From positions 228,120 to 292,119 of IMG/VR virus record IMGVR_UViG_3300031555_003590: DNA of 64,000 nt; one strand, written 5' to 3'. This document shows positions 38,518-61,994 of the stretch, piece after piece. Position 1 is the first letter of the stretch. Each line of letters opens with the position of its first letter. The notes beneath the pieces are model-generated. The model was not told where the DNA came from, ran no database searches, and was given only the letters and a program-made list of their open reading frames with translations. The position numbers were made by a program, and so were the translations under genes. The stretch comes from a virus. Lineage: Duplodnaviria > Caudoviricetes.

Positions 38518-39243
38518 ATGACAACTGTATTAAAGAATTTAACAGCTAAATGGAAATTCGACCCTATTAATTTAGAAAAGTTTCATCCAGTAGAAGGTAA
38601 TATTAACCTAGACGTAGTACAAACTGAACCAACTCCATTTACTTTAACTTCTAGTAATATAAGTGAAATCGGATATACAGATACTACTACTGATTTAGTA
38701 ATTCCAGAAACATTTATTGGAACTGATGGAGTATTATATAAAGTAACTAGTATTGATAACCAAACATTCCATTCTGATACTAACTTAATTAGTATTTCTA
38801 TACCAGATACTGTTACTAGTATTGGTGCTGGTGCATTTGTTGGTTGTACTAATTTAAAAACTGCTACTATATCAAATAATGTAACTAATATTGGAAGTAT
38901 GGCATTTGGAAATTGTACTAATCTAACTAGTGTAAATATTCCTAATAGTATGACTATCCTTAATAATAGTATATTCATGAATTGTTCTAGTTTAACAAAT
39001 ATTATTATACCTGACAGTGTAACTACTATATATGGTTATGCATTTGAAAAATGTATTAAACTAAGTAGTATTACTATTCCTAATAGTGTAACTAGTATTG
39101 GAAACTATACATTTGATGGTTGTATTGCACTTAATACAGTAAACTACACTGGTACTGAAGAAGAATGGAATGCCATTGAAATTGATATTACTGGTAATGA
39201 TTCATTACTTAATGCTACTAAAGTATACAATTATGGATCATAA
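38518..39243 (+). CDS. BspA-type LRR protein with an N-terminal half-Ig plug
   Basis: IPDSVTxIGxxAFxxCxxL repeats; N-terminus WKFDP...FHPVEGNINLDVV; start refined to ATG 38518. Confidence 0.8.
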   Translation: MTTVLKNLTAKWKFDPINLEKFHPVEGNINLDVVQTEPTPFTLTSSNISEIGYTDTTTDLVIPETFIGTDGVLYKVTSIDNQTFHSDTNLISISIPDTVTSIGAGAFVGCTNLKTATISNNVTNIGSMAFGNCTNLTSVNIPNSMTILNNSIFMNCSSLTNIIIPDSVTTIYGYAFEKCIKLSSITIPNSVTSIGNYTFDGCIALNTVNYTGTEEEWNAIEIDITGNDSLLNATKVYNYGS

Positions 39244-39311
39244 TATTCACTAAAATATAATGTGATATGATTATATCATTATAAAATAATATAAGGAGGA
39301 TATAATAAATT

Positions 39312-40142
39312 ATGGCTATTGAACTATATCAACTTCTAGACCAACAGGGTATGACTACTCTGGCAACTCAATTACTTACTAAGACTAATGTTCGTATTCA
39401 AGAGCGTATTGTAACCATTATTGATGAGAATGCTACTTCTAAACAAGTTGCTTCTGCTAAGGCTCTATATACAATGCTTCAAGCAATTCAGACCAATAAT
39501 GATGGTATTGCTGAATATCTTGATGAGCATGATGTTCAGTTAGAGAACCAGGCTACTAGTATTGGTGACCTAGAGACTACTCAAGATGCTCAGGATGGAA
39601 AACTTACTGATGTTGAGTCCGGTCTTGCTAATTTAACTACTAAGATTGGTGATCTTGTTCACCTTACTATTGAGACTGTAACCGGTGATATTTCTACCGT
39701 AGCTGATCCTCGTGATGATGTACTTTACTTCCAGAGAGATAATGAAGCAGACACTATGTGGATGCTTTATATTTATCAACCATCTGCAGTTGAAGGCGAA
39801 GATGGTACTTGGGTTAATATTGGTGATACCGAGGTAGATCTATCTGGTATTTGGTCTAAAGATGAGACTGAGGAACTTAAGGAAGCACTTGGTATTCATA
39901 ATGTTGAAACTCTTTCTGATGAGACTCTAGTAACTGTCGCAGATGCTGCTTATGAAGCAAATGCTGTTGAACTTAGAGCTACTCCTACTGGTGAACCTAC
40001 TGTAGCTTCCGAAGTTGAAGTTGGTACTGCTCTAAGTGATGTTCCTATTAGTGGTACTATGATGTATGGTAATGTTGAAGTACCAGGTACATTTAGTTGG
40101 GTTACTACTGATGAAGAGTTTGATGCAATGGTTAATGCATAA
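39312..40142 (+). CDS. Fibre/appendage family protein C, ending in an incomplete Ig-like domain
   Basis: Paralog of 37437; ends ATP...GTALSD...VPGTFSWVTTDEEFDAMVNA*. Confidence 0.75.
   Translation: MAIELYQLLDQQGMTTLATQLLTKTNVRIQERIVTIIDENATSKQVASAKALYTMLQAIQTNNDGIAEYLDEHDVQLENQATSIGDLETTQDAQDGKLTDVESGLANLTTKIGDLVHLTIETVTGDISTVADPRDDVLYFQRDNEADTMWMLYIYQPSAVEGEDGTWVNIGDTEVDLSGIWSKDETEELKEALGIHNVETLSDETLVTVADAAYEANAVELRATPTGEPTVASEVEVGTALSDVPISGTMMYGNVEVPGTFSWVTTDEEFDAMVNA
40080..40117 (+). repeat. 38-bp repeat, inverted copy at 57398-57435
   Basis: GTACCAGGTACATTTAGTTGGGTTACTACTGATGAAGA identical in both genes and in the same reading frame. Confidence 0.9.
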
Positions 40143-40228
40143 TTAATAAATATATAATTTATTAATCATAAAATATAAAGGAGGGTATTATACCCTCCTT
40201 TATATTTCTTTTTCACTTATTTGACTCA

Positions 40229-40240
40229 AACCCTTCTTTA
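40229..40240 (+). promoter_or_regulatory. Putative late promoter AACC-N6-TA
   Basis: Follows terminator 40171-40207, upstream of the long fibre gene. Confidence 0.55.
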
Positions 40241-40279
40241 ATATTGTATAAAAATCTATAGAGAAGGAGTTGATTATAA

Positions 40280-43200
40280 ATGGGACTAATTGGTCATGAA
40301 ATTATTCAATCCCGAATTTGGGTTGATCCTAATAATCCGCCGCCCCCGAATTTGAATTATAAATTTACATTTCCTATTACTGTATTCGATGCTGTGCGTC
40401 GTGATATGGCTAATGATCAAAGTGAAACATTAACTCAAGTTCTGGATAGAATTAATTTAGCAATTCAGTCTAAGCAAACATTAATTCCTGCTAAACCTGC
40501 TAATTATCTAGTAACATATGGTGGAGTAGCAGGTGCTGTTGGATCAATACAAATTTCAAATGAAATTCCTTGGGAAGAAGCTGATCAAAGTCATACTAGA
40601 ATTCCATCTGAAAAAGCTGTTGGTGATTTAATTAGATTATTAGGCGTTAATCCAAGTGATCCTAGTTCTGGTTATAATATCAGATGGTCTGACATCATTG
40701 GTAGACCAAATATCTATAGTTCATTTGGTTCTAATGAATTTGGATTACTTAGTCAAAAATTTTTATCTGAAGAATTAAATAAATTATCTTCAAGAATTAC
40801 TGAAAATAATGATGTATTTCTTAGTACTATAGATTCATTAAAATTAAAAGTAGATACTCATACTAATAGTCAAAATAATCCTCATAATGTTACACTTGCT
40901 CAAATAGGTGCTGCATCAGAAGATGTTTTAAATCAACATCTCAATGCTGATAATCCTCATGGTATTACTAGAGAATATTTAGGTATTGAAAATGTTGACA
41001 ATACATCTGACTTAGATAAACCAATGTCAAATGAAACCAGACAAGCCATTGATCGACTCAATGAATTGTTTGATAATATGACTGATGGTGTTGGTGATTT
41101 AACTTTTATAACTAAGATTGAATATAATGCACCTAATAGTACTCTAGATTTAGTATATAGAGACGGATCTATTATTTCAGTAGATCTTCCTATTGGTAGA
41201 GCTGTTGATAATATATATTATGATCCTACTACAAAAGAATTAGTAGTTGTTGATAATATTGGTAATGAAGATCGAGTTAATATTCAAGAATTATATATAC
41301 GATATAATGGTTCTAATGGTGAGCAAATTACAGTATCAATTGATGATAAAAATAATATCAATGCGATAATTAATTCAAAATCAATTACTAATTCTCATAT
41401 CCAAGATGGTACTATTAATAATAGATTATTAGAAAATGAATCAATAACTGCTGCTAAAATTAGAGATGAAACAATTACATCTGCTAAATTAGCTGATAAA
41501 AGTATTACTTCTAAAAAGATTGATGATAAAGCAGTTACTATTGAAAAACTTGATAATCGTGCAGTAACTGGTGCTAAATTATTTACTACTACTGATGACA
41601 ATAGAATTTTAGCAGTATTAAAAGGTAATAGTAATCCAGTATGGACTCAAATAACTGCAGGAATGATTGGATCTAATGCTATTCAATCTACTAATATTCA
41701 AAAAGATGCAGTTACATATGATAAAGTTGCACCAGAGTCTATTGGTAGTATTCATATTCAAAATACATCTATTACTACTGATAAACTTGATAATGCTTCA
41801 GTAACAACTACTAAGCTTGCTGATGGATCAGTAACTTCTTCTAAATTAGCTAATAGTTTAATGTTAGAAGGAAATCCAACTATTAGAAATACTCCTGAAG
41901 CAGATGCTAATAATAATCAGATTGTTGATACTAGATGGGTACGTGCATTTGCAAAATATCAATTACTTATTACATCTTCTAATATTGAAAAAAGATCTAT
42001 AACTGCAGATAAATTATTCTCATCTCAAGAAAAGAATAAAGTTTTAGCAGTATTAAAATCAAATCAAGATCCAGAATGGACTACCATCAACAATGATATG
42101 ATGGAAGATAATTCTGTTGATACTCGTAATATTATTGATCTATCCATTACTAAAGATAAATTATCTGATAAATCTATTGAAATTCGTCATCTAAATAAAT
42201 CCATCATTAATGATTTTCATATTATAGAATCAGCTATTACTTCTGAAAAGATTTATCCTTCTCATGAGGCTAATAGAGTTCTTGCTGCACTAACTGAAGA
42301 AGGACATCCTACATATTCACAAGTAACTCAAGAAATGCTTGCTCCTAATTCAGTTGGAACTAAACAACTTATTGATGGAACTATTACTCTTTCTAAATTA
42401 GTATCTTCTAATGAAGGTCAACAAGTTCTAACAGTTGGTCTAAGTGGTGCTATTCCTCAATGGAGTAAGATCATGAATAAGATGATCGCTGATAGAGCTG
42501 TTGATGGATCTAAACTATTCTCTTCAGATCATGATAATATGATTCTTACAGTAACTAATGCTGGTCAAAATCCAACATGGACTAAAGTTACTGGTCAAAT
42601 GATTGGATATCATGAAATTGAAGCAAGAAATATTAAAGAAGATGCAATTGGAACTGAACATATCCAAGATGGATCTATTATCGCTGCTCACATTCAAGAT
42701 AATTCACTTGAAGGTAAAAATTTTGCTTATGGATCAATTGATCCTGATAAAATTAAACCTTCTGACACTCCTGAAAGAGTTTTAGCTACTACTGAACTTC
42801 CTTATAGTAATCCCAAGTGGGTTCAAATTAGTACTGGTATGATTGAGGATGGTGCAGTTACTGGTGATAAGATCTTTAAATCTGAATATCCTTATCATGT
42901 ACTAGGTGTTACTCAGGCAGGGAAGCCTCCTGAGTATACAATGATCTCTCATCAATTTATTGTTGATAATACTATTACTCCTCAAAAACTTAATAAAAAC
43001 TTTGCACTGATTGGTACTCCTTCTTTGACAATTCCTCCATCAGTTGATGCAGATGATTATACTTTAGCAAATACAAGTTGGGTTAGAAGTACAATCAAAG
43101 AAATGGTTAAAGGAATTGATATTCCAGGAGGTTATATTGATATTCCTGACCATAGTATTGATGGTACAAAATTATTTACTCATCCATATGGACCTAGAGT

Positions 43201-44506
43201 TCTTGGTATTACTGAAGCTAATGGAGATGTTGAATTCCTTCTTATTGAAGAAAATTTAATTGCTAATGGCGCTATTACAACTGATAAGATTGAACGTAGT
43301 ATTCATTTACTTGGAACTCCAACCATTGAAGTTAGACCATCTGCATATGCATGTGATGATAATGGAGACGGCCATCAAATCCCAGATTGTCAATGGGTAT
43401 TAGATCGAATCAAAGAATATATTGAATTAAATGCTAAAAATCTAACTTACAATGATAAATTATGGGTTATTAATCAGATTGATTCAGCTTTTGCAGCTGT
43501 AGGAATTGATTTATCAGGATCAACAGCTGGATTTGAAAATATTCCTGATGTTGATATGGATCAATTAGAAACTTTAATAACTTTAACTGCTGCAGATAGA
43601 AAATGGGTTCTTGACACAATTAATGCAGAATTTACTAAAGCGGGTTATTATTTAGAAAATGAAGAATTTAGTACTGATATAGATGTATCTACTTCTGAAG
43701 TAACTTTAAGTGAAGCTGCTAAGATGTGGGTAATTGAAACAATTGATTCTGCATTTACAGCAGTTGCTATTAAGATTACTGACCCAACTGCTACTAATCC
43801 AAATGAACCAAGTCTTCCTGATGAATCTGAAACTGGTGGAGCACTTGCATCTGTACAACCTGGTTCTATTGCAACAATTTATTTACAAGATAGAGCTGTT
43901 ACTGGTCAAAAACTATTTACTAGTGCATTTGATAATAGAATTCTTGCTGTTACTGATGCTAATTCTGATCCTCAATACATGCAGGCTATTAATGAAATGA
44001 TTTCAGATAGAGCTATTGATGGTAGAACTTTATTTACATCTAGTGAATCTAACAGAGTTCTAGCTGTTTATAGTAGTGATACTGACCCTGTATGGAGTCA
44101 AGTTACTTCTTCAATGATTGGAGATAGTGAAGTTCAGACTAATAATATTTCTAATGAAGCAATAACTGAAGATAAAATTAAACTTAGAAGTATCAGTAAT
44201 AAACATTTAGTTGATGAACCCATTATCAATGAAAATCAACTTATGTCAGAAAGTGTAACTACTCCTAAGATTAAAGATGGATCTATAACTAATGCTAAAC
44301 TTGCAGATGATTCAATTACTGGAGATAAGATTGCAGAAAAATCTATTAATGGTAATAAATTATCAGATGATTTAGTATTACATGAAAATACATCTGTACA
44401 AAGTTCTAGTGTTAATTATGAACAAAGAGTAGTTCGTAATATCATTATTTCTCCCAATAGTCCTACTGGTGGTAAAAATGGTGATATCTGGTTTAGATTT
44501 TCATAA
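40280..44506 (+). CDS. Long tail fibre protein
   Basis: NPHNVT/NPHGIT repeats, many ITxxKL/AVTGxKLF...VLAV...PxW repeats, C-terminal PTGGKNGDIWF. Confidence 0.8.
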   Translation: MGLIGHEIIQSRIWVDPNNPPPPNLNYKFTFPITVFDAVRRDMANDQSETLTQVLDRINLAIQSKQTLIPAKPANYLVTYGGVAGAVGSIQISNEIPWEEADQSHTRIPSEKAVGDLIRLLGVNPSDPSSGYNIRWSDIIGRPNIYSSFGSNEFGLLSQKFLSEELNKLSSRITENNDVFLSTIDSLKLKVDTHTNSQNNPHNVTLAQIGAASEDVLNQHLNADNPHGITREYLGIENVDNTSDLDKPMSNETRQAIDRLNELFDNMTDGVGDLTFITKIEYNAPNSTLDLVYRDGSIISVDLPIGRAVDNIYYDPTTKELVVVDNIGNEDRVNIQELYIRYNGSNGEQITVSIDDKNNINAIINSKSITNSHIQDGTINNRLLENESITAAKIRDETITSAKLADKSITSKKIDDKAVTIEKLDNRAVTGAKLFTTTDDNRILAVLKGNSNPVWTQITAGMIGSNAIQSTNIQKDAVTYDKVAPESIGSIHIQNTSITTDKLDNASVTTTKLADGSVTSSKLANSLMLEGNPTIRNTPEADANNNQIVDTRWVRAFAKYQLLITSSNIEKRSITADKLFSSQEKNKVLAVLKSNQDPEWTTINNDMMEDNSVDTRNIIDLSITKDKLSDKSIEIRHLNKSIINDFHIIESAITSEKIYPSHEANRVLAALTEEGHPTYSQVTQEMLAPNSVGTKQLIDGTITLSKLVSSNEGQQVLTVGLSGAIPQWSKIMNKMIADRAVDGSKLFSSDHDNMILTVTNAGQNPTWTKVTGQMIGYHEIEARNIKEDAIGTEHIQDGSIIAAHIQDNSLEGKNFAYGSIDPDKIKPSDTPERVLATTELPYSNPKWVQISTGMIEDGAVTGDKIFKSEYPYHVLGVTQAGKPPEYTMISHQFIVDNTITPQKLNKNFALIGTPSLTIPPSVDADDYTLANTSWVRSTIKEMVKGIDIPGGYIDIPDHSIDGTKLFTHPYGPRVLGITEANGDVEFLLIEENLIANGAITTDKIERSIHLLGTPTIEVRPSAYACDDNGDGHQIPDCQWVLDRIKEYIELNAKNLTYNDKLWVINQIDSAFAAVGIDLSGSTAGFENIPDVDMDQLETLITLTAADRKWVLDTINAEFTKAGYYLENEEFSTDIDVSTSEVTLSEAAKMWVIETIDSAFTAVAIKITDPTATNPNEPSLPDESETGGALASVQPGSIATIYLQDRAVTGQKLFTSAFDNRILAVTDANSDPQYMQAINEMISDRAIDGRTLFTSSESNRVLAVYSSDTDPVWSQVTSSMIGDSEVQTNNISNEAITEDKIKLRSISNKHLVDEPIINENQLMSESVTTPKIKDGSITNAKLADDSITGDKIAEKSINGNKLSDDLVLHENTSVQSSSVNYEQRVVRNIIISPNSPTGGKNGDIWFRFS

Positions 44507-44527
44507 TTGATAAAGGAGGAATAATAT

Positions 44528-44926
44528 ATGATTCTGGAATTTGTAGATAAATCACAGATTGAAGTTATAACTATTTTAGGCGGTCCAGCTAATATCAATG
44601 GAATTATTCGAGATGTATTAACAATTGAAATTAGTAAATCTACAACTTATTTAGATAAATTAAAAGAAATATTTGAAAATATTGATAATTTAGCTAGACT
44701 ATATAGTTATGAAGAAGAGCGAAATGAGAATGATGATATTTTAATGAATAGAATTGAAATTGGTGAAGGATATACAATTGTAGTAGGAATTGAAGAAATA
44801 AGTCGAAAAGTAATTCCATTTCCAGGTAAAATTGTACCAGATACATATGAAACAATTTATCAAGTACAATTAGCACAGATGACATATGATGAATGGATTG
44901 CATCTGGATATAATCTCACTGAATAA
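44528..44926 (+). CDS. Fibre-associated protein, paralog of 62236-62661
   Basis: RDVLT, GY, QxTYxE motifs shared. Confidence 0.7.
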   Translation: MILEFVDKSQIEVITILGGPANINGIIRDVLTIEISKSTTYLDKLKEIFENIDNLARLYSYEEERNENDDILMNRIEIGEGYTIVVGIEEISRKVIPFPGKIVPDTYETIYQVQLAQMTYDEWIASGYNLTE

Positions 44927-44940
44927 GGAGGTATATCTAT

Positions 44941-45768
44941 ATGCCTATGGGAAATAAAATCAACTGTGTATGGAGAGATACAATTACTTCTTCATCTAAA
45001 ATTAATAATGTATGGAGAAATAATATAAATGGTTGGTCACGTATAAATTGTGTATGGAGATCTACACATCAACAATTATCATTTGATCCTAAAAATGTAA
45101 TTGGCTTTAAATTGATCTATACTCTAAATGCAAATAGAATACATCATGATATTCCTCATTTGAAATACAATCCAAATATTCCATATGTATTTAAATTAAC
45201 TGGAGATACATTAGGTAATTTAGATTATAATAGAAAAGGTGTTGTGTTTGAATACAAACGCGATGATCCTGAAGAGGAAGGTATTATTATATATGAGGGC
45301 AGATTATATGCAATGATGGTTAGTGGCGAATTGATAAATGTGTGTCAGATGTCAGGAAATAATAATGGTAAAGAATCTGAAGATGAAATGGTTAGTGAAT
45401 TTACTAATATATATGAATCCAGTATAGTTCATGATGTTGATATTAAATTACATGGATATGTATTATTTGAAGATTATGGATATTATTTTGCTGGATGGAA
45501 TAATTTATTTAATACAAAGCCATTTATTGACCAAACCATTTATCCTGATAAAATTGAATACAAAAAATTATTACAAATAGATGATTACATAATTCAACCA
45601 ATGATATCACGAGATGAATACTTTGATTCAGTTGCCACTATTGGTGTTGCAAGAGATATGCATAGTGATAATTTTAATATGAATGGTGCATATGGTGTTC
45701 TAGATCATACCATAAATAGAATCACAATGAATGATAAAGATTATCCATTTATTATTGAAATTAAATAA
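44941..45768 (+). CDS. Putative fibre-tip protein
   Basis: N-terminal triple INxVWR repeat. Confidence 0.6.
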   Translation: MPMGNKINCVWRDTITSSSKINNVWRNNINGWSRINCVWRSTHQQLSFDPKNVIGFKLIYTLNANRIHHDIPHLKYNPNIPYVFKLTGDTLGNLDYNRKGVVFEYKRDDPEEEGIIIYEGRLYAMMVSGELINVCQMSGNNNGKESEDEMVSEFTNIYESSIVHDVDIKLHGYVLFEDYGYYFAGWNNLFNTKPFIDQTIYPDKIEYKKLLQIDDYIIQPMISRDEYFDSVATIGVARDMHSDNFNMNGAYGVLDHTINRITMNDKDYPFIIEIK

Positions 45769-45860
45769 TTATATAGAGAGGGAGAATTCTCCCTCTCTAT
45801 ATTCATTTTAAGTTTATATATTCTATTAACGTGTAAACTAAAAGTATTTAATGAAAGGAT

Positions 45861-46802
45861 ATGATATTTATGAATGATAAAAAACTTATATTGGCAATTG
45901 ACTTTAATAACTTTATATTTGCTAATTATTACAGCCAAAAACTCTTTAATCGAAATGGGAAAAATATAAATGCCATAAAGGGTACATTTTTTAAATTAAA
46001 GATGTTAAAAGAAATGTTTAATCCTGATTATATTGTATTTGCATCAGATCTTAGTAGAGAAAAAACTTTTAGGAGAAAGTTGTATAAAAAATATAAAGCG
46101 CAAAGAAAACCTACTGATGAAGATATTATATTTCAAATGAAATATATTAGTCAACTAATAGCATTATTAGGATATAAGATTCTAAATAATGAAACATATG
46201 AAGCAGATGATATTTTAGGTATGATTAGTAAATATGGAACCGATAATAATATGGAAACTGTTATTGTATCATCTGATAGAGATTTATATCAGTTAATAAA
46301 TGATAATACATTTATTATGTCTCCTCGTGGTAAAAATGAAGTAGTTGATATTGCATATTTAGTTGAAAAATATAAACTAATGCCATATCAATGGGTTGAT
46401 TTAAAAACATTACAAGGAGATCCATCTGATAATATTCCAGGAATTCCTGGTATTGGTGAAATAACTGCATTAAAATTAATGCAAGAATATGATTCTATTG
46501 ATGGTATCTATGATAGTATTAAAGAAATGAAACCTTCTGTACAAAAACTACTCAGAGCTGGAATTGATACTATTGATTTAACAAAACAATTAGTTACAAT
46601 TATAACTGATTATAATTTAATTGGATTAAATGAAGATATGTTAATTCGTGAAGAATGTTATCCTAAAGAATGTATTGATACTATTTTAGAATTAGAAATT
46701 CCATCTTTGATTAATATATTCAATTATTCACTGTTTGATAAACCGATTTATATTGACCAGAGTAGTATAGCTGGAAGTAATGAAACATTTATGTTACCAT
46801 AA
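45861..46802 (+). CDS. 5'-3' exonuclease/flap endonuclease (PolA N-terminal, T4 RNase H-like)
   Basis: YKAQR, YEADD, SSDRDLYQL, GDPSDNIPGIPGIGEITA. Confidence 0.92.
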   Translation: MIFMNDKKLILAIDFNNFIFANYYSQKLFNRNGKNINAIKGTFFKLKMLKEMFNPDYIVFASDLSREKTFRRKLYKKYKAQRKPTDEDIIFQMKYISQLIALLGYKILNNETYEADDILGMISKYGTDNNMETVIVSSDRDLYQLINDNTFIMSPRGKNEVVDIAYLVEKYKLMPYQWVDLKTLQGDPSDNIPGIPGIGEITALKLMQEYDSIDGIYDSIKEMKPSVQKLLRAGIDTIDLTKQLVTIITDYNLIGLNEDMLIREECYPKECIDTILELEIPSLINIFNYSLFDKPIYIDQSSIAGSNETFMLP

Positions 46803-46817
46803 AGGAGAAACAAATCA

Positions 46818-47015
46818 ATGAAAGAAATTAAAATTATTAAAGGTAAAACTACTGATATTATTGAACGAGATGTAAATGAATTTATTAGAACTGAAGGAAA
46901 TTATAATTGTTATCATAATCAAATATTTGAATTAGAAGATGTAAAATTTATTTACAATGCAATAGAAAATATTTATATTGCTATGGTTATTTATAGTATA
47001 ACCAATTTCGGTTGA
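46818..47015 (+). CDS. Small hypothetical protein (possibly Cse60-like)
   Basis: RBS AAGGAG; IExxVNEF...DVKF...AMVIY pattern. Confidence 0.6.
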   Translation: MKEIKIIKGKTTDIIERDVNEFIRTEGNYNCYHNQIFELEDVKFIYNAIENIYIAMVIYSITNFG

Positions 47016-47050
47016 CCAGATTTTAACAATAGAAAGGAGTTGTTTATAAA

Positions 47051-48019
47051 ATGGCTATTACCGGATTCTATGAATCTTCTTTAACTACATCTGAAATATA
47101 TGCAGGAATAAATAATACCGGTGGACCTGATTCAGTAACTAAAAAAGCAATTAATTTAATTAAGACTGCTAAAAAACTTACGAATGAAGATATTGAAGCA
47201 GCATATATTTCTGTAAAACAAATTTCAGATACTTTAACTAGAGAAGCAGTTAGAGCATTTGATGAAGAAAGAACTGTATTAGTATACAATAATGTACCAT
47301 CATTAGCAGTTACTCAAGCATTACCTTTTATTACATTTAAAACTAAAAATGGTTATGTGACATATGTATTTGTAGATAAATACATTAGTATTAGTCGTGA
47401 TGGTGTGATGAATATGCAAGCACCCGTACTTAGGGATCTACTCACTGGTGCATTAATTGCAAATGGTTTAAAACGAAATTATGATATTTTAGCTTCTAAT
47501 CAATATTTACAAAAGGTAATGATGGAAGTATATACAAAATTTGTCATTAGAATTATCAATAAAGAATTTTCTGTAATTGCAGATAAGATTGTATTTGACA
47601 CTCTTCAGTATTGGATTAATCGTTTCTTCTTAACTCAGATTCTAAGTTCTAATGATACTCCTCAAAATATTGAAACTAATGCCAAGAAACATTTTAAATT
47701 TATTGATGAACTTAAATATGATGAAATTAAACAGCAATATGATTCTATTAATCCTCAAAAAATTAGTGAATTGTTAGAATTATTAAAATTAGCATCTCCT
47801 AGAATGAAAGCTTTAAATTTAGCTAAATTCTTATCTAGTTGGATTAATTATTATTATATTCCATCTATGCTAGCAGTAGATAATATTGAATATTTAATCT
47901 TTATGATGATTACTCTATTGAATGGTAATAATATAATTAGTATTGCTGCATCTGATATGGTTAAAGAAGCTAAAAATATTAAAAGCTTCAAAGGAGAACT
48001 TTTAAAGTTAATCGTATAA
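47051..48019 (+). CDS. Hypothetical protein, possibly virion-associated
   Basis: RBS GAAAGGAG; N-terminal FYES motif. Confidence 0.7.
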   Translation: MAITGFYESSLTTSEIYAGINNTGGPDSVTKKAINLIKTAKKLTNEDIEAAYISVKQISDTLTREAVRAFDEERTVLVYNNVPSLAVTQALPFITFKTKNGYVTYVFVDKYISISRDGVMNMQAPVLRDLLTGALIANGLKRNYDILASNQYLQKVMMEVYTKFVIRIINKEFSVIADKIVFDTLQYWINRFFLTQILSSNDTPQNIETNAKKHFKFIDELKYDEIKQQYDSINPQKISELLELLKLASPRMKALNLAKFLSSWINYYYIPSMLAVDNIEYLIFMMITLLNGNNIISIAASDMVKEAKNIKSFKGELLKLIV

Positions 48020-48040
48020 TAAAAGGAGGATTAACTTATT

Positions 48041-49159: not shown

Positions 49160-49171
49160 TAAAATTAAATT

Positions 49172-49197
49172 GAGGAGAGGGTATATATCCTCTCCTC
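49172..49197. terminator. Bidirectional terminator at the strand convergence
   Basis: GAGGAGAGG-gtatatat-CCTCTCCTC. Confidence 0.75.
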
Positions 49198-49205
49198 TAT
49201 ATTTT

Positions 49206-49481
49206 TTAAATTTCGGTAATTAAAACAGCTTTATTTTTATGAGCGGATATTCCAAATATAGTAGTAAATACTTTTGGATTAATAATTTCACCACTTTTAA
49301 TAGCATTACCAATTAATGTATTTCGTAATTTAATTTGTTCTTCTTCATATTGTTCATATTCTTTTTGAAACATTTCATGATATTTTAATAAATTAAAATG
49401 ATAATGATATTTAGCAGCATCTTCCATACTACATACATTTGGATCAATCTCTTTATAAAATACTTCAGTTATTTTTCCCAT
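49206..49481 (-). CDS. Small accessory protein coupled to the Cys-rich gene
   Basis: Overlaps the end of 49469-52147; RBS GGAG. Confidence 0.7.
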   Translation of the reverse strand: MGKITEVFYKEIDPNVCSMEDAAKYHYHFNLLKYHEMFQKEYEQYEEEQIKLRNTLIGNAIKSGEIINPKVFTTIFGISAHKNKAVLITEI

Positions 49482-52147
49482 AAACTTTCTTCTCCTTCCA
49501 CTGGATATAAGAACTCATCCTTTTGTATAATAACTAATGAGTTACCATTTTTATCTTTGATTATTGGATGTAGTACAATTCCAAATGGAAGTTTATATGA
49601 AATATCTTCATCAGTAAATTGAATATCATCATTTTTAAAGAAGATAATAATATAAATACCGCCGCCATTATCAATATTAGGTTTATTAGATTCAATAATT
49701 CCAGGTAGCATATCTTCATCTATATGAATATTACCTTCTTCATCATATGTATATATTCCACCAGTAGTAACAGTTTGTTTGATGATATACTTTAATTCTT
49801 CAGGGCATGTAATAAATAAATTTCTATCATTATCTAGAGTAATAAAAATTAAACTAGATTTTTCTATATTATCTTCATAATTAGGCGATGGAATATCTCT
49901 AACTATTTTAAATGATTCTCGTTCTTGCCATCTATTTTCTGGATGTGGATAAATATATCCTTCAGAAGTAGGATCTCTTTCAGGGCCATTAGTAAATGTA
50001 GTTTTAGATTCTAAGTTTGATACACATGATCCCATACAAGTTTGAATACACATATTATCACAAGTACTAAAACATGCAGTACTACAAGTAGAATCACACC
50101 ACCAACCACATTGATTAGAACAACTTGTACAAGTAGATTCGCATCTCAAAGTGCATATACCAATGCACATTCCAGTACAAGAGTAACAAAGATTAGAACA
50201 ACCAGAACATTCTTCACTACATGAATGTACACAATTAGTTTCACAAGAATGTTCACAAGTTGCACTGCATGTAATATTACAATTTTGAGTACATCCAGAT
50301 GAACATGCAGATGAACACATGCCACATTGCCATCCACAACTATTAACACAAGTAGTACATTGATTAGAACATGCATCAGAACATTGAGCTGTACAAGATG
50401 TTCCGGTACAATTCATTCTACAGTTACCATCACAAGCATTTCCTCCATCACTACCACACATAGATTTACATCCATTACCCATGCAACTGCCATTACAATC
50501 TAATCTACATGTAGATGTACATCCGCCTTCAAATGAACAACCATTACATGCATGATGTGTTGATTCATCAGTACAACTACCACTACAATTATTTGTACAA
50601 CCTGTACAAGATTGTGTACAACCATTTGCACAACCATGACCACAATTAGTACTGCATTCGAAAGAACAATTATCAGAGCATTTTTGTTGACATGCATGCC
50701 AGCAAGTATGTACACAATATCCTTCACATGTACCTTCACATCTACCAATACAATTTAATGTACATCCTGCTTCACAACCTCTACCTTTTCCTGTTCTATA
50801 ACTATTACCAGTTTGAGGATCATTATCTACACATCCACCATAACATGAAGTAGAACAAGAATTAGTACAAGAAGTAAAACATTTGCCCATGCATCCAGAA
50901 TCCCAACATTCAGTTTTCTTATTAGGATAGAACTGGCAACTATATGAACATCCTTCACATGAATAAGTAGTATATTCTAATTTATTTTTTGCAGGCACTC
51001 CATTCTTACCACCAGTAGCAGTAATCTTTACTGTTTTAGCACCAGCAGTTACACATGAATAGCCAGTACTATTTTCACATTTAGTTTTACAAGATGAGAA
51101 ACATTGTGAACTACAACCAGTACAAGAAGTAGTACATGAATTAGTACAAGCATTACCACATCTACCCCAACAAGTAGTGGTACAATTTTGTGAACATTCA
51201 TTATCGCAAGTAAGATGGCAAAGCCCTGTACAGGAATTATTACAATTTGTAACTACTCCACCATATACTGGTTTTGATGGTAGTTCATCTCCTCGTTGTG
51301 GATTGCGAGGATTAGGTCCAAATCGTTTTGAAGCTAATCCACCACTTTTAATTCTAGTAAATACATTATTACGTTCATTATTTTGGTCATTCCAATTTCG
51401 ATGAATAATCGGAGTTACATATGGATTGTATGGATGGAAATTAGAATCACCTGGTTTAGCACCATAATCATCATAAAAATTATTAGGTCCTAATCCATCA
51501 TATTCATTTAATTCTTCTCCATCATATTCACCAGATGGCATTACATATTTACCATCTTCCATTGGATATGTAATATTTAATTTTTCATTTGGCCAATTAT
51601 CACTTTTATGTGTAGTAATACCACCATTAGGATCATTAATAGTTGGAAAATTATCTGATTCATGTAATAGTTTATTTAATACACTATTTTCTGCAGCAAT
51701 TAATGATTCTTCAATTCCAGAAGGATCTCTAAATGCGGTATTTGAAATTTCATCTCTTCCATAAAAAAGATTAATATCATTCATTTTAGCTAAACCAATT
51801 AACATATTTTTGAGTTCATCTACATTGAGAGCAGCTGCAGATGTATTTGGAATAGATGAATTATGTTCTGGAAGTTGTCCAGCAGGATTTTCTCCATGAG
51901 CAGGATAATTAATATTCTTAGTAGGTTCCAAAGATCCTTCAGAAGGATTATTGATAGTATAAGTTTTATCATCTACTAATACTCTATCACCATTATCAGG
52001 AATACTTAATGGAGAACTTTTATCTATACCTACTGTAGGAGTACATAATGGATTCCACCATTTATATGTTCCTCGTCGTTTAATTTCTTTATTAATTCTT
52101 TCTATTAATTCAGTAAATTCTATATTAGAATAAAAATTCTTATTCAA
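49469..52147 (-). CDS. 892-aa Cxxx-repeat Cys-rich protein, probable radical-SAM modification target
   Basis: About 88 Cys, mostly spaced Cx3C, in 50024-51244; TTG start with RBS GGAGGTG. Confidence 0.85.
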   Translation of the reverse strand: MNKNFYSNIEFTELIERINKEIKRRGTYKWWNPLCTPTVGIDKSSPLSIPDNGDRVLVDDKTYTINNPSEGSLEPTKNINYPAHGENPAGQLPEHNSSIPNTSAAALNVDELKNMLIGLAKMNDINLFYGRDEISNTAFRDPSGIEESLIAAENSVLNKLLHESDNFPTINDPNGGITTHKSDNWPNEKLNITYPMEDGKYVMPSGEYDGEELNEYDGLGPNNFYDDYGAKPGDSNFHPYNPYVTPIIHRNWNDQNNERNNVFTRIKSGGLASKRFGPNPRNPQRGDELPSKPVYGGVVTNCNNSCTGLCHLTCDNECSQNCTTTCWGRCGNACTNSCTTSCTGCSSQCFSSCKTKCENSTGYSCVTAGAKTVKITATGGKNGVPAKNKLEYTTYSCEGCSYSCQFYPNKKTECWDSGCMGKCFTSCTNSCSTSCYGGCVDNDPQTGNSYRTGKGRGCEAGCTLNCIGRCEGTCEGYCVHTCWHACQQKCSDNCSFECSTNCGHGCANGCTQSCTGCTNNCSGSCTDESTHHACNGCSFEGGCTSTCRLDCNGSCMGNGCKSMCGSDGGNACDGNCRMNCTGTSCTAQCSDACSNQCTTCVNSCGWQCGMCSSACSSGCTQNCNITCSATCEHSCETNCVHSCSEECSGCSNLCYSCTGMCIGICTLRCESTCTSCSNQCGWWCDSTCSTACFSTCDNMCIQTCMGSCVSNLESKTTFTNGPERDPTSEGYIYPHPENRWQERESFKIVRDIPSPNYEDNIEKSSLIFITLDNDRNLFITCPEELKYIIKQTVTTGGIYTYDEEGNIHIDEDMLPGIIESNKPNIDNGGGIYIIIFFKNDDIQFTDEDISYKLPFGIVLHPIIKDKNGNSLVIIQKDEFLYPVEGEESLWEK

Positions 52148-52182
52148 TTTAAATCACCTCCATATTATATTTGAATAAACAT

Positions 52183-52194
52183 TATTAAGTCGTT
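52183..52194 (-). promoter_or_regulatory. Putative late promoter AACG-N6-TA
   Basis: Directly after hairpin 52208-52245, upstream of the Cys-rich gene. Confidence 0.5.
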
Positions 52195-52247
52195 CCAAAT
52201 TAAAATAGATATTAGGATAGGGAAATGAATCCCTATCCTAATATATT

Positions 52248-53198
52248 TTAACTAATTAATTTATTATAAATATTCTCGCATTTTCTACATGAATTACAAT
52301 CACCAATAATACAAGTATTTTCTCTAAGTTTAATATATTCTAAAAATATATCATATTTATTATCAGGGATATAAATATTACCAAGCATCTTAGTTCTAGT
52401 ACTAGATGTCCAATTAGAAAGTATAGCATTTATATTTTCATTTGAAATCATTCTGGTAGCAAATTTTAAAATATCATAATCATGATATTGTAAATCTTCT
52501 TTATATAATTGAATTCTAGATAATTTCATCCATGGATATAATTCATATACTTTATTACATACTCGATTACATTTACTTCCTTTACATGTAAATGATTCAC
52601 ATCCTGGAAGATTATTATAATTATTTTCTCTACTAAATATACATCCTTCATTTACAATAATTTTGGTTTTCATTTCCATATCATGAATCATTTTTATCAC
52701 ATTATTATTGTTAAAATGTAATTCTCCAGATATATTTATTACATCTACTCCAGCCTGTTTAAGTTCAAATAACTTTTCACCAGGAGAAAATCTAATTGAT
52801 GGATCATTATCTATATTCCAATCCCAGTATCTTACAGATATATGAATTTCTAATTCAGGAAATTCTTTCTTTATCTTTACTGCAAATTGCGGATCAAGAA
52901 TAGTTACTGCATTAATTAAATTACTATTTAATGATAAAAGAATATATTCTATATAGTTTAAAGATGATCCAAATGTATTTAGTAATAAATTTCCTTTAAA
53001 TCCATATCTTTCGCAATTTTTTAATGTACTAAGTGTTTCATCTAGATCTATATGATTCATATGAACATCTTCTGTTAGTGAGAAGAAATATGAATGAATA
53101 TAATTTTTATATGGCAATAATGTATCAAAGAAATCTTGACCAGTAAAATTATATCCAACTGAAAAACTATTTGATTTTATTAATGATTTAATATCCAT
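52248..53198 (-). CDS. U32 peptidase-family-like Fe-S protein
   Basis: NLLLN, AVTILDP...IKKEFPELEIHISV, IIVNEGC, DILKFATR, C-terminal CxxCxxC. Confidence 0.65.
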   Translation of the reverse strand: MDIKSLIKSNSFSVGYNFTGQDFFDTLLPYKNYIHSYFFSLTEDVHMNHIDLDETLSTLKNCERYGFKGNLLLNTFGSSLNYIEYILLSLNSNLINAVTILDPQFAVKIKKEFPELEIHISVRYWDWNIDNDPSIRFSPGEKLFELKQAGVDVINISGELHFNNNNVIKMIHDMEMKTKIIVNEGCIFSRENNYNNLPGCESFTCKGSKCNRVCNKVYELYPWMKLSRIQLYKEDLQYHDYDILKFATRMISNENINAILSNWTSSTRTKMLGNIYIPDNKYDIFLEYIKLRENTCIIGDCNSCRKCENIYNKLIS

Positions 53199-53219
53199 AA
53201 ATATTTACTCCTAATATGA

Positions 53220-55499
53220 TTAATTATCAAATAATCCAATTTTAACAGCTATAGCTGTGCATTCTAATAGTTTTAAACTATTCAATTCTTCTTGATCAAT
53301 TACTAATAATGACCATTCATCTGGTAATACATTCTTTCGTATTGGTAAATCATATTCAGGATGTTTGACCAAAAGTTTATTCCAGTAATAAACATTTGCC
53401 AAGTGTTCCGCAAACATCATTAAACAAGTAAAAGTTCCTCTCTTATTAGGAGTTCCAAATATCGAATGACCATGAGCTAAACAATAAGCACAATCATTTG
53501 AAATTGGACATTCAAAACAAATATCATTGGCTGCACTTCTACGAGTAATTCTATCCATCATTTGTAAAACTTCAGAATCTTGTTCTCTGCCAATAATACC
53601 ACTTTCAATATTACCAATACAAAGATCTTTTACATCACTACCAACAGAACTAGGCATATACCTAATACAAGGATAAAATTGTCCATTAGGTCTTAATGAT
53701 AACATTGAACCTTGACCTCCACAAGGAGCTGAATCATTATACTTAGACATCATATCTTCTTGACGTTCATTAAAAATAGCAATATATAAATGCTCTAGAT
53801 TATTTTCTAATAAATAATCTGCCAGTTTCTTTAATTGTTGATATTCTATTAATGCAGTTTCTTGAGTCCATCCTTCTTCGAATACACAATTAATATTTAT
53901 ACAAGTCATTCCATTCTTAATAAAATTGACTACTGAATCATATAAATATTTGATATTAGAAGGAGCTAATGTCATTTTAGAATTTCTTTCAGGAGTATGA
54001 TATTTATTATAATGATTTAATGCAGCAATATCAATATCATAACTTCCTTCACCATTAGGTTGAACTCTACATGCATCATGTAATTCTTTATTACCATCAA
54101 TAGAAATATTAAAAGAAATATTTTGAGCATACTCTTTAAAAAAGTCTTGTACTTCTGGATCAAAATATGATAATCCATTAGAGCAAATAGAAACCCTATG
54201 TAAATTAAACCATGGATGATTTAATTCATAACATTGTTCTAAAAAATACTCGTAAATCTTTCTAGTTAATTTGATTTCTAATAGAGGTTCTCCACCAATA
54301 AATTCTAATATTAATGCTGGAGAATTATATCGATTAACATAACCATATTTATCATTTAGCATATTATCAATAAATGTTTTAGCAGTTTCAAATGACATTC
54401 TCATTGGAGTTTTATTGAATTGATAACAATAGGTACAATTATGGCATACTAAGTTACAAACAATAAAAGTATGTAATTCGGTTTCTAAATTATACACAGT
54501 TTCTACTTTAATATCATTTTCATTATATTTTAATTCAAATGAATTAACTGATGTTACATATTTATCTTCATTACAAAATATAAATCCGTGAGATGGATTA
54601 TTTGATTTCATAATTTCATCAATTGATAACCATTCTCTGCTAGGAGTTAGAAATGGATGATCTCTAGTTACTCTAAATCCATCATGATAATCTTTCCACC
54701 ATACTCCAACTGTTTCAGCTTCTCTTCTAAACAGATGAGTTACTTTAGTAGGAACAAAGTTCTTTCCATTATAAAAAGTTTCATTGTTATTATCTTTAAT
54801 AATATTTTCAGAACATGCTAAAACTAAATCTCCTAATTTAATATCTTTAATTGGTTTTTGTGATCCATTAGCCATTAAAACTAATGAATCTCCTGAAAAA
54901 CAATTTAATGAACAACGTTCGGAAGTTTGTAAAGTTACATTATGAACAAATACATCACTATCAGCACCTGTTCCTACTACATCCTGTTGTCTATTTTCAA
55001 ATAATTCTGGATATGCTTTAGCTACTCCATCATTATATGAATCAGTATAGAATCTGAAATATTCATTGGGATCAATATTATATACCTTATCTTCTGGAAT
55101 TTCATTATCAATATACTTTAAGAATTCTTTATTTTTAGAAATAATAATCATTTTAAATTTCACATAAGTTGTATCAATCTTTACATCTTGTGCTAATACA
55201 TCTTCTAAATCATCTAATTTAAATGGATCTGGAATTGTGATTACTTGTGCAATTAACATATATAAAAATTCACCAAATGATGAGTGTAATTGCCTAGCTT
55301 TATCAGTAAATTGATTTTGTAATTCTGGAATTTTATATAAATCTTTATTATTTTTTATCATGTATTTGATTCTAAATAATAGTCCATCTACATCCAATGA
55401 TAATCTATCTAATCTATATTCTTGAAATAAATTTAAACAAAAATTATCAAATTGAACTTTAAATAATTTAATATCTTTTTCTAATTTATATGCTTTCAT
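53220..55499 (-). CDS. Radical SAM/SPASM peptide maturase (Cxxx-repeat-target type) with intein
   Basis: CSLN/CTYC cluster motif, FIGGEPLL, SIDG..ELHDACR, CGG...YPCIRY...CFECPISNDCAYC SPASM. Confidence 0.9.
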   Translation of the reverse strand: MKAYKLEKDIKLFKVQFDNFCLNLFQEYRLDRLSLDVDGLLFRIKYMIKNNKDLYKIPELQNQFTDKARQLHSSFGEFLYMLIAQVITIPDPFKLDDLEDVLAQDVKIDTTYVKFKMIIISKNKEFLKYIDNEIPEDKVYNIDPNEYFRFYTDSYNDGVAKAYPELFENRQQDVVGTGADSDVFVHNVTLQTSERCSLNCFSGDSLVLMANGSQKPIKDIKLGDLVLACSENIIKDNNNETFYNGKNFVPTKVTHLFRREAETVGVWWKDYHDGFRVTRDHPFLTPSREWLSIDEIMKSNNPSHGFIFCNEDKYVTSVNSFELKYNENDIKVETVYNLETELHTFIVCNLVCHNCTYCYQFNKTPMRMSFETAKTFIDNMLNDKYGYVNRYNSPALILEFIGGEPLLEIKLTRKIYEYFLEQCYELNHPWFNLHRVSICSNGLSYFDPEVQDFFKEYAQNISFNISIDGNKELHDACRVQPNGEGSYDIDIAALNHYNKYHTPERNSKMTLAPSNIKYLYDSVVNFIKNGMTCININCVFEEGWTQETALIEYQQLKKLADYLLENNLEHLYIAIFNERQEDMMSKYNDSAPCGGQGSMLSLRPNGQFYPCIRYMPSSVGSDVKDLCIGNIESGIIGREQDSEVLQMMDRITRRSAANDICFECPISNDCAYCLAHGHSIFGTPNKRGTFTCLMMFAEHLANVYYWNKLLVKHPEYDLPIRKNVLPDEWSLLVIDQEELNSLKLLECTAIAVKIGLFDN
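54438..54902 (-). mobile_element. 155-aa mini-intein inside the CX3CX2C motif
   Basis: CFSGDSLV start, TRDHPF block B, VYNLE block F, VCHN end, Cys+1. Confidence 0.92.
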
Positions 55500-55557
55500 A
55501 TAATACCTCCTATAATATTTTATTTAAATATTCAAGTATTACTATTAACAAGAAAAT

Positions 55558-55586
55558 ACAAGGTAGGGTTTTAACCCTACCTTGTT
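55558..55586. terminator. Terminator hairpin
   Basis: ACAAGGTAGGGT-ttta-ACCCTACCTTGT. Confidence 0.75.
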
Positions 55587-55605
55587 ATTATAAAATTATA
55601 GATAT

Positions 55606-57858
55606 TTATACAACTAGTGGTTTACAAGAAGGAGATGCTCCAATATACCAACCTATGACATCTGATTTATCATAAAAATCGCAAGTAAAAATACCACAGA
55701 AAGTTTGATCGTTAACTCCGCAATATCCACCAAATGAAGCAACTCGTACATCATTATTAGTTGTAATATAAATCATATCACAGAAACCAGTAGTTCCAGT
55801 TGCAGTAGTAGTTTTTGGGAATATACCGTATTGATTAACATATACTGTAGATAGATATCCATACTTAGTAGGAATGTTACCAACTTTGATATATGTAGCA
55901 TTGGGGCTATCATAACCAATATAACCATCTCCAGTATTAGCAACAACTTTGGTATATAGAACTCCTGTATTATTGATTATACCTGCAGTGCGTCTACTAA
56001 TATTACCCCAAAGATTCTCAATACCAAATACTTTAACACCTTCATTATTAGAGGTGGATCCCCAGAATAATCCTTTAGTATTCATTGTACCTGTCTTCAG
56101 TACACCATTAGTACCAGAATTAGCATGAGGATTATTTAGTCCATTATAGTTACCATTACCAAATACAAGCTGACTATTAGTAGATTTACCAATTAGCATT
56201 AGTAGTAAGGTAATTAACATGCGGTCGCAGAATAAATCAATACTCCAAATTGTTTTATTGTAGTTATTATATGAATATACGAACTGATAATCCATTGCTT
56301 TATCGCCACTAGGAAGCTTGCCACTAATACTACGTAGTTTATTAGATGAGTCAATCCATCCATTATATGCAGATATATATGTATAAGGCATTATTTTATT
56401 ATTGGAATCAGTATGTGCATATGCATAATAGCTATTATCTAATTTCTTATTACTAAAATAGAATTTAGGTTTATCTTCAACAGTATAATCGATTTTAACC
56501 CATACAGTAGGAATACCAATCATAACATTACCAGCTATAGTATCACTATTAATGTTAGATGCAGTACCATCAACTTTTTTAGTATAATCATTTTTATCTA
56601 ACTCATATGCTACTGTACCATCATAATTTAATACTACTGGTTTAATATTTTTAATAAACCAAGCATTTGCCCAACTACCATAATCAAATACTCCTGCTGT
56701 ATAGTTCATTTTAGCTGAAGTATAATTCACATTAGATCCTAAATATGTAATCTTTTTAGTAGTATCAGATACAGTTTGATCCAATTGAAATGCGTACATT
56801 TCAACAGCCTGTACTATAGTTACAGAAACTTGTACTATATTAGATGTAGTATAGTTATCAGTTTCATTGACATTAATAGTGATTATACTACTACCTTCAT
56901 TATTACCTGTAACACTTACAACACCGGTAGTTTGGTTAATAGAAATAGTAATATTTGTATTATTAGCAGTTGCAATAATATTACCTGTATTATTTCTAGT
57001 TACTGTGAAAGTACCAATAGCACCAGTTTCAACATTTAAAGCAGCAGCAGATGTTGATATAACTCCAACAGCTTTACCGATACTCCATTGTACTTCTTTT
57101 GCAGTATTGGTTCCATCTTCCCATTGATAATTTTCATTAGGAGTAAATGTTGCAATATATGTACCAGCATTAGTAGCAGATGTAGTACCGCCAATAGTCA
57201 TATATGTAGAATTGTAATTATCCCAACCAGGATACTGTATAGTGCCATTATAAGTTAATGTAACATTCTGAACTGGTACTACAGGAATTTCAATATTATT
57301 AATAATGATAATTGTTTCACCAGTTATCTCATTATAGTTACTATTATCAGGAACAAATTTCCACTGTACCGTAGCAGGATCACTCATAGTAGCAAATTCT
57401 TCATCAGTAGTAACCCAACTAAATGTACCTGGTACATTAGAATCAACTGTTGCAATTATATCACTTAATGCAGTACCATAAACAATATCAGTAGGAGTTG
57501 TTACAGTAGTAACAATAGGAGTTGCTTTACTAATAGTCCATTCAATAGTAATAGGAGTTGCATCATTAGTTGTATCCCATGCATAACCATCTTTAGGAGT
57601 AAATGTTGCACTATATGATCCTACATCAACTCCAGTATTACCTGTAACATCCATTATATCCGGATTATACCAAGTAAAAATTGGTGATAATGTTTCACCA
57701 GTATATACTAAATCAGTAATAGCCAGTGAAGGAGGAGTGATTAAAGTAATACTTCTAATAATATCTAAATTGATATTACCTTCTACAGAATGAAATGCTT
57801 TTAAATTATCTGGAATAAATTTCCATAAAACATTTAATGTTTTAATTAAAGTACTCAT
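55606..57858 (-). CDS. Ig-repeat adhesin/fibre with N-terminal half-Ig plug and a C-type-lectin/FGE-like tip
   Basis: YNGT...TNAGTY.ATFTP..NYQWED Ig repeats; FGIENLWGN...GG...IGASPSCKP tip. Confidence 0.75.
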   Translation of the reverse strand: MSTLIKTLNVLWKFIPDNLKAFHSVEGNINLDIIRSITLITPPSLAITDLVYTGETLSPIFTWYNPDIMDVTGNTGVDVGSYSATFTPKDGYAWDTTNDATPITIEWTISKATPIVTTVTTPTDIVYGTALSDIIATVDSNVPGTFSWVTTDEEFATMSDPATVQWKFVPDNSNYNEITGETIIIINNIEIPVVPVQNVTLTYNGTIQYPGWDNYNSTYMTIGGTTSATNAGTYIATFTPNENYQWEDGTNTAKEVQWSIGKAVGVISTSAAALNVETGAIGTFTVTRNNTGNIIATANNTNITISINQTTGVVSVTGNNEGSSIITINVNETDNYTTSNIVQVSVTIVQAVEMYAFQLDQTVSDTTKKITYLGSNVNYTSAKMNYTAGVFDYGSWANAWFIKNIKPVVLNYDGTVAYELDKNDYTKKVDGTASNINSDTIAGNVMIGIPTVWVKIDYTVEDKPKFYFSNKKLDNSYYAYAHTDSNNKIMPYTYISAYNGWIDSSNKLRSISGKLPSGDKAMDYQFVYSYNNYNKTIWSIDLFCDRMLITLLLMLIGKSTNSQLVFGNGNYNGLNNPHANSGTNGVLKTGTMNTKGLFWGSTSNNEGVKVFGIENLWGNISRRTAGIINNTGVLYTKVVANTGDGYIGYDSPNATYIKVGNIPTKYGYLSTVYVNQYGIFPKTTTATGTTGFCDMIYITTNNDVRVASFGGYCGVNDQTFCGIFTCDFYDKSDVIGWYIGASPSCKPLVV
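57398..57435 (-). repeat. 38-bp repeat, inverted copy of 40080-40117
   Basis: Identical sequence encoding VPGTFSWVTTDE. Confidence 0.9.
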
Positions 57859-61992: not shown

Positions 61993-61994
61993 CC

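Follow-up and report, generated by a model that had tools for sequence, protein, structure and literature searches.

The host range of a phage depends on how its receptor-binding proteins (RBPs) are mounted on the particle. In known branched systems, a peptide of one protein binds a whole domain of another, and in one solved lactococcal case a hairpin completes the β-sandwich of its neighbor. Here we analyze a 64,000-nucleotide (nt) stretch of DNA, hereafter called the window, which comprises bases 228120-292119 of the 292,119-base record IMGVR_UViG_3300031555_003590. The source is an uncultured gut jumbo phage, and the record is rated complete by CheckV. In this window an immunoglobulin (Ig)-like domain is divided between genes: a 276-residue fiber protein ends with the first part of the domain (the ‘socket’), and separately encoded host-recognition proteins begin with the remaining part (the ‘plug’). 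Judging from the homologs and the complex model described below, plug and socket probably dock with each other, and would thus constitute a natural split-domain joint in the fiber set of a jumbo phage.

The closest described system in function is that of the branched RBPs in KP32, K11 and KP34 (podophages of Klebsiella), in which a ‘conserved peptide’ of ~29 residues at the N-terminus of RBP2 attaches to the T4gp10-like branching domain carried by RBP1 (PMC13352976; PMC6872550). This peptide is able to carry foreign heads (PMC13352976). As is proposed for the locus examined here, an anchored primary fiber takes a separately encoded secondary RBP by way of a short, conserved and portable N-terminal peptide. 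However, the peptide of the KP32 type binds a complete folded domain, whereas the plug and the socket each correspond to one half of an Ig-like domain that relatives carry in one piece. Furthermore, KP32-type phages carry one peptide-bearing protein, compared to four in this jumbo phage of probable Bacillota host. Pfam and PHROG scans did not find a T4gp10-like branching domain on the socket fiber.

The closest described system in structure is the baseplate tripod of Tuc2009, where the C-terminal β-hairpin of BppU completes a sheet of domain 2 of BppA to yield a titin-like composite (PMC4742702). Likewise, in our complex model a two-strand hairpin of one adhesion protein completes the β-sandwich of another, which would hold an accessory binding protein in place. 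The arrangement is reversed, however, because Tuc2009 carries the hairpin on the scaffold and the incomplete sandwich on the accessory protein, whereas here the hairpin is on the incoming heads. Neither fused relatives nor multiple interchangeable partners are described in the Tuc2009 paper (PMC4742702). A sequence relation to BppU or BppA is not apparent, as no match to BppU_N or a related family was obtained with the window proteins scanned. Thus, the present locus differs from the known systems in that its parts are halves of one domain left whole in relatives, in that the heads bear the hairpin, in its four heads per socket type, and in its occurrence in an uncultured jumbo phage. A full-text literature search for strand complementation in phage fibers gave nothing relevant, including no paper on the subject for jumbo phages.

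The genes and domain parts concerned are the following.
39312-40142, plus strand: socket fiber gene, 276 residues (translation; homologs).
39975-40139, plus strand: socket, residues 222-276 of the fiber, RATP...GTALSD...VPGTFSWVTTDEEFDAMVNA (profile, alignment, and strand map from the intact-domain model).
40171-40207, plus strand: terminator-like hairpin directly after the socket gene, a 17-pair stem followed by a T-run.
38518-39243, plus strand: plug-LRR gene, 241 residues, a 34-residue plug followed by a BspA-type leucine-rich-repeat (LRR) head (PF13306, E = 4.7e-39).
38518-38619, plus strand: plug 1, MTTVLKNLTAKWKFDPINLEKFHPVEGNINLDVV (plug profile E = 2.4e-19; alignment to the two final strands of intact domains).
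55606-57858, minus strand: plug-Ig-tip gene, 750 residues (translation; phrog_5302 ‘tail protein’ over residues 200-748).
57757-57858, minus strand: plug 2, MSTLIKTLNVLWKFIPDNLKAFHSVEGNINLDII, residues 1-34 of the 750-residue protein (plug profile E = 3.8e-21; partner chain in the complex model).
57304-57528, minus strand: intact copy of the domain, residues 111-185 of the 750-residue protein (profile positions 1-76 of 77, E = 3.9e-23).

The socket fiber consists, in order, of an N-terminal anchor-like region, a helical stretch that is probably a coiled-coil, a β-rich knob and the truncated Ig-like domain, and its C-terminal sequence reads ...RATPTGEPTVASEVEVGTALSD...VPGTFSWVTTDEEFDAMVNA. It has no Pfam match, and its sole PHROG match is a family of unknown function. 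The exact 276-residue protein is present on 7 contigs with the same neighbors in each. We infer that this fiber is a virion-anchored multimer, and that its stalk is trimeric.

The plug-LRR gene starts with the ATG at 38518, which is preceded by a GAAAGGA ribosome-binding site. Gene callers give the 241-residue version used here, whereas a mechanical list of open reading frames (ORFs) begins this ORF at the TTG at 38464. The product of the plug-Ig-tip gene, which is found in exact form on 7 contigs, is built of a plug, an Ig-like domain, the intact copy of the split domain, a second Ig-like domain, a Big_2-like domain and a large receptor-binding tip. A word-index search with residues 1-60 of this protein returned nothing.

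An earlier note on this DNA had described a socket on one gene and plugs on others. Its statement that the product of 39312-40142 ends in only the first part of the domain is borne out by the translation and by the profile positions given below. Similarly, the translation, PF13306 and the plug profile agree that the gene at 38518 starts with the missing last strands and carries an LRR head, and GAAAGGA does precede both window plugs, as expected if each plug gene has a ribosome-binding site of its own. The note was also right to place an intact domain within 55606-57858 and a plug at 57858, but these belong to one minus-strand gene of 750 residues and not to two genes. Consequently, although all the peptides quoted are present, there are three genes of interest in the window rather than four. 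The two plugs noted are real, but two more that lie elsewhere in the genome had been missed.

A plug profile searched against the 292-kb genome identifies exactly four N-terminal plugs, with E values from 4e-21 to 2e-17, and the next match is at 0.24. The 34-residue N-terminal module shared by these four proteins (E 1e-17 or better) begins in each case at the first ATG of the ORF, behind a GAAAGGA ribosome-binding site. The two genes outside the window lie at genome positions 12123-10510 (minus strand) and 98211-100517 (plus strand), and both encode Ig-like repeats with LRR heads. Three of the four heads are LRR heads and one is a large lectin-like tip. By the same kind of profile count, the genome holds four plugs, compared to one socket and one intact copy.

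The two parts correspond to adjoining segments of a single domain. A domain profile of 77 positions was derived from 46 sequences, mostly repeats of unrelated giant proteins. The C-terminus of the socket fiber covers positions 2-47 only, and plug N-termini cover positions 49/50-76 only (three of the four plugs were matched, and weakly, with domain E values of 0.019 to 3.7), such that the halves abut without overlap. Together with the E values of the plug profile and the colinear alignment with a fused relative described below, the complementarity of the halves is far beyond chance. The domain itself, with the consensus KATP..YGTALS..VPGTF...F.P.D..NY, recurs very commonly in giant surface proteins; at E ≤0.001 it occurs in 2877 representative proteins, some of which have as many as 30 copies. 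Some of these repeat-bearing proteins match Ig-like Pfam families of the HYDIN/CFAP65/ASH type, whereas the intact copy in the window has no Pfam match.

An AlphaFold model of the intact copy, with a predicted local distance difference test (pLDDT) value of 88.9, has six strands and a short helix. When the cut is mapped onto this model, it falls directly after the helix (DEEFA). The socket side retains the four short strands 1-4 together with the helix, and the plug side consists of the two longest strands, of 9 and 10 residues. A Foldseek comparison of this model with the PDB gives weak matches that are nearly all Ig-like sandwiches, the best being Listeria InlK (E = 0.019). When the PDB was searched by sequence with the fiber, the tip protein and the domain profile, no meaningful match was obtained.

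The same cut is present in relatives. Among 45 fiber homologs, five other cluster representatives, which are 46-61% identical, end at the same point, and the socket motif VPGTFSW.TT.EEF is near-invariant among them. Relatives with this cut occur in four other sets of metagenome contigs (designated L016, L017/L018, L021 and L024), whose fibers are 46-50% identical to the socket fiber. In all four sets a plug gene lies directly downstream of the socket gene, separated by a spacer of 56-95 nt with a ribosome-binding site. This downstream gene encodes a plug-LRR protein in L016 and a plug-Ig-LRR protein in L017/L018. In L021 it encodes a plug, an Ig-like domain, an intact domain and a further Ig-like domain ahead of a tip, and is the counterpart of the 750-residue gene. 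A scan of viral contigs with the fiber alone found nothing, and a scan with the fiber alignment found one locus, L021.

In L024, two plug-Ig-LRR genes follow each other in tandem; their plugs are identical, and the spacer, which includes a hairpin and a ribosome-binding site, is duplicated. It is thus evident that several heads per socket recur. The spacer and the first 32 residues of these two genes are duplicated exactly (L024 positions 2392-2468 and 4017-4099), which suggests that a plug cassette was duplicated recently and now precedes two different LRR heads. GC-rich hairpins are located beside socket or plug genes in L016 (7460-7554), L021 (10835-10904), L024 (2392-2468) and the window (38445-38478 and 40171-40207). 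Hairpins in such positions could set the ratio of fiber to head expression.

Other relatives carry the domain in one piece. The proteins P0020 (426 residues) and P0200 (498 residues) have fiber, intact domain and LRR head on a single chain, and P0030 and P0033 end just after the whole domain. Over 98% of its length, the socket fiber shares 49% identity with the N-terminal part of P0020. The plug-LRR protein, in turn, is colinear with the C-terminal half of P0020 (residues 264-426; E = 6e-29, 47-54% identical), and this alignment runs across the domain boundary. These fused and intact relatives show that the two halves are parts of one domain. A single-sequence AlphaFold prediction of the fused P0020 reached a pLDDT of 42 and was not usable. 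In a tree of the shared N-terminal part, the domain-bearing forms fall into one clade, within which the split forms make up one subclade with long branches, and the split lineages are separated by 0.2-0.6 changes per site. The cut is therefore old, and this pattern fits a single old fission that has been kept since.

To model the joint, socket residues 214-276 and residues 1-110 of the 750-residue plug protein were submitted as a complex, with a small alignment of its own for each. The complex scores 0.84, compared to 0.00 for the best of three controls. Of 80 solved complexes, 58 reach the pass mark used, as do 2 of 110 mismatched pairs. At least 98% of contacts are shared between runs, and the partner has a pLDDT of 92 or more. 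In the predicted contacts, VLWKFIPD of the plug is antiparallel to GTFSWVT of the socket, with F facing F and W facing W, and the second plug strand, NLDII, pairs with the early EVEV strand of the socket. The hairpin would therefore be inserted between two socket strands. Because there is no solved relative by sequence, it is unlikely that the pass reflects memory of a similar complex.

The earlier note had proposed strand complementation in trans between stalk and heads, and this proposal is now supported in silico: the halves are complementary and conserved, fused forms of them exist, and in the complex model socket C-terminus and plug N-terminus form one rebuilt domain. The note had also named the circumstances under which the split would be a one-off scar, namely that homologs are always fused. 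This is not the case, as split, fused and intact forms all occur and the split point is conserved.

According to this model, the 276-residue fiber would present strands 1-4 and the short helix of the six-strand sandwich while lacking the two longest strands. Each of the four separate host-recognition proteins would supply these missing strands through its 34-residue N-terminal hairpin, and docking would rebuild one whole domain and thereby tie the head to the fiber. Since a single socket type would serve several plug types, the same fiber could carry different heads. The heads may compete for the fiber or be mixed on it, which would widen host recognition.

Other ways of joining the parts were considered and dropped. 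A covalent isopeptide lock was rejected because the candidate lysine in WKF is not conserved among the plugs. Read-through or hopping from socket to plug was rejected because each plug gene has its own start and none of them is downstream in this phage. Similarly, an intron or trans-splicing was rejected because the spacers of the relatives are so short.

The proposed joint is also reminiscent of chaperone-usher pili, in which an N-terminal extension of one subunit fills the incomplete Ig-like fold of another. In pili a single strand enters the groove, a chaperone is displaced, and the subunits polymerize head to tail. Here, two central strands, the longest of the six, are donated in the model, and the product would be a stalk-to-head joint rather than a polymer. 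Nothing points to a chaperone or an exchange step, although no genome-wide search for PapD-like chaperones was made, and where the host of a phage is Gram-positive such a chaperone would not be expected. As the hairpin forms the middle of the sheet rather than a single edge strand, and as there is no sign of a chaperone, the analogy is loose. Of the comparison with donor-strand exchange drawn in the earlier note, the completion of a fold by an N-terminal extension stands, but the single donor strand and the exchange do not. Related donor-strand fibers include TasA and BsaA (PMC11580942).

Several observations weigh against plug-socket docking. Four plug types for a single socket type leave the stoichiometry unexplained. 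Unlike in the relatives, the socket gene of this phage is not directly followed by a plug gene; of the four plug genes, one is upstream, another is on the opposite strand at a distance of 17 kb, and the remaining two are far away. Moreover, seven fibers without the domain nest in the same clade of the tree, six of them inside the split subclade, and thus sockets are easily lost or these sequences are incomplete. The complex model carries its own caveats. Its alignments include rows cut from intact domains, and in part it therefore repeats what the fused forms already show; moreover, tests of this kind tend to be passed by the halves of split domains.

One could consider that the plug serves as a general docking peptide by which its protein attaches to some other part of the virion, for example a baseplate or neck protein. 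The truncated domain of the fiber would then be functionally unrelated to the plug, as a tail that is decayed or disordered. Precedent comes from short, conserved attachment peptides at protein N-termini, such as that of KP32 RBP2 (PMC13352976), whose binding site is a folded domain on a different protein, and three of the four plug genes here are not adjacent to the socket gene. However, the plug is homologous to exactly the strands that are missing from the fiber, a decaying tail would not maintain a near-invariant socket motif among relatives as divergent as those described above, and in the four related contig sets the plug genes directly follow the socket gene. We consider this explanation unlikely. 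It is also conceivable that the split is a neutral scar of gene fission and rearrangement, with halves that have ceased to meet and plug proteins that stay free or have no structural role. The fiber region has clearly been rearranged relative to its relatives, as evident from L021, where the order is LRR fiber, socket gene, plug-Ig-tip gene and giant fiber, whereas here the LRR fiber and the plug-Ig-tip gene are on the other strand. Yet a scar of this kind would not be expected to persist at the same cut across lineages as distant as those in the tree, nor would a plug with its own start and ribosome-binding site be expected on four different heads and in duplicate in L024. In addition, between two plug paralogs the plug is better kept (18 of 34 residues identical by hand count) than the domain that follows it (~42% over residues 1-110). 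A neutral scar thus seems quite improbable, and docking of plug and socket remains the explanation that we favor.

A further means of joining the halves would operate at the level of DNA, by way of an inverted repeat that is present in both genes.
40080-40130, strand not applicable: left arm of a 51-nt inverted repeat, within the socket, encoding VPGTFSWVTTDEEF (92% complementary, first 38 nt exact).
57385-57435, strand not applicable: right arm of the 51-nt inverted repeat, inside the intact domain of the 750-residue gene.

The exact 38-nt part occupies 40080-40117 and 57398-57435, and all 12 of its 12 codons are identical, synonymous sites included. In contrast, the equivalent motif pair of L021 has many synonymous-site differences. 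This comparison suggests that the repeat arose by recent recombination or gene conversion in this phage. A flip between the copies would invert 17.3 kb and thereby create an in-frame fusion of the fiber (residues 1-270) with the tip protein (residues 156-750). In phages Mu and P1, invertible tail-fiber segments (the G segment with Gin and the C segment with Cin, respectively) provide alternative C-terminal parts for a constant N-terminal part in this manner. The present locus resembles these in having alternative parts for one constant part and an inverted repeat that is in frame in both genes. One contig from run X3 (record 17) places only 777 of its 1162 letters on the window (40080-40856, minus strand), ending exactly at the repeat, and its other 385 letters may hold an alternative junction.

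Despite these similarities, inversion is not supported as a working mechanism, and we regard it as very improbable. Mu and P1 have an invertase, whereas the 292-kb genome has no match to PF00239 or PF00589 and so encodes neither a serine invertase nor a tyrosine recombinase. Each alternative part also has a start of its own, and only one orientation has been seen. The gene for a 1408-residue protein follows on each of the 7 contigs with the exact fiber, and the neighbors of the tip gene are likewise unchanged on the 7 contigs that carry the exact tip protein. Gene order is thus the same over the 14 contig look-ups, although these are based on exact proteins and fused forms would escape them. 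Logan contigs from four feces-metagenome runs are short, have ~4-5x depth and are broken at the 38-nt repeat, and joints with only 20-24 letters on a side look spurious. When metagenome contigs were searched with junction patterns, the inverted junction had 0 matches, but so did the reference junction that served as positive control, and this search therefore has no bearing on inversion. Finally, relatives exhibit the split without the inverted arrangement, and a flip would add at most a fused isoform while leaving the three other plugs unexplained.

The window has a GC content of 26-37%, and its sequence is present in feces metagenome runs. Fiber and tail genes occupy 34.9-48 kb on the plus strand and 49.5-64 kb on the minus strand of the window, and the 1408-residue protein of this region has many tail-fiber PHROG matches. 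The DNA of the fiber region gave no match when searched against 50,697 phage records. Two neighboring features encode additional fibers.
36420-38411, plus strand: two paralogous short fibers of 324 residues each, with the same N-terminal region and knob as the socket fiber but without a socket.
57914-59338, minus strand: fiber of 474 residues to which an LRR head is directly joined; its gene is just upstream of that for the plug-Ig-tip protein.

The N-terminus of the 474-residue fiber is only weakly similar to the socket fiber. One of the 324-residue paralogs (37437-38411, plus strand) has a short LRR-cap-like insert (...TVNFVGTEEQWNAITVGTTGNDPLTAATKTYEYT) within the knob, between the YVYQ and GTWINVGDTEVDLS motifs. 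The tip of the 750-residue protein resembles Mtd-type or collagen-fiber heads as well as tail proteins of Bacillota phages, including those of Butyrivibrio, Faecalibacterium, Clostridioides and Bacillus phages, and the host is therefore likely a member of the Bacillota. The predicted structure of tip residues 346-750 (55606-56823, minus strand) is similar to clusters with Mtd_N, collagen-fiber, BppU_N and tail-collar families, and by features the same residues have a likeness to FGE-sulfatase.

Additional observations concern genes that are near the plug-Ig-tip gene. Just downstream of it is a gene for a 759-residue radical SAM/SPASM-like protein (53220-55499, minus strand), which has weak, sub-threshold Hint (intein-like) matches near residues 198-231. 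An 892-residue protein (49469-52147, minus strand) is encoded by DNA with periodic Cys-rich repeats (families D5, D14 and D17), and its counterpart in a relative has a weak tSAM_targ_Cxxx_rpt match. A direct repeat of 151 nt (60042-60192 and 61845-61995, 87% identical) forms the starts of two adjacent minus-strand genes, one of which (59371-60195) has a DUF6273 match in a contig annotation.

The locus unites a conserved cut, fused forms that show the expected joint, and four natural heads per socket, and it therefore offers a testable model for the evolutionary swapping of modular heads. It also provides a candidate for a small natural connector (34 plus ~55 residues) by which foreign heads might be mounted on fibers. 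More speculatively, and with the odds in our estimation somewhat against it, split Ig-like domains may serve as a general snap-fit connector in jumbo phages, such that one multimeric stalk carries mixed heads drawn from the four plug-bearing RBPs. If this is true, such a connector would be a natural counterpart of engineered split-protein tags that could be reused in phage engineering. Host recognition by these phages would then be combinatorial, and new heads could be recruited simply by gaining a 34-residue plug.

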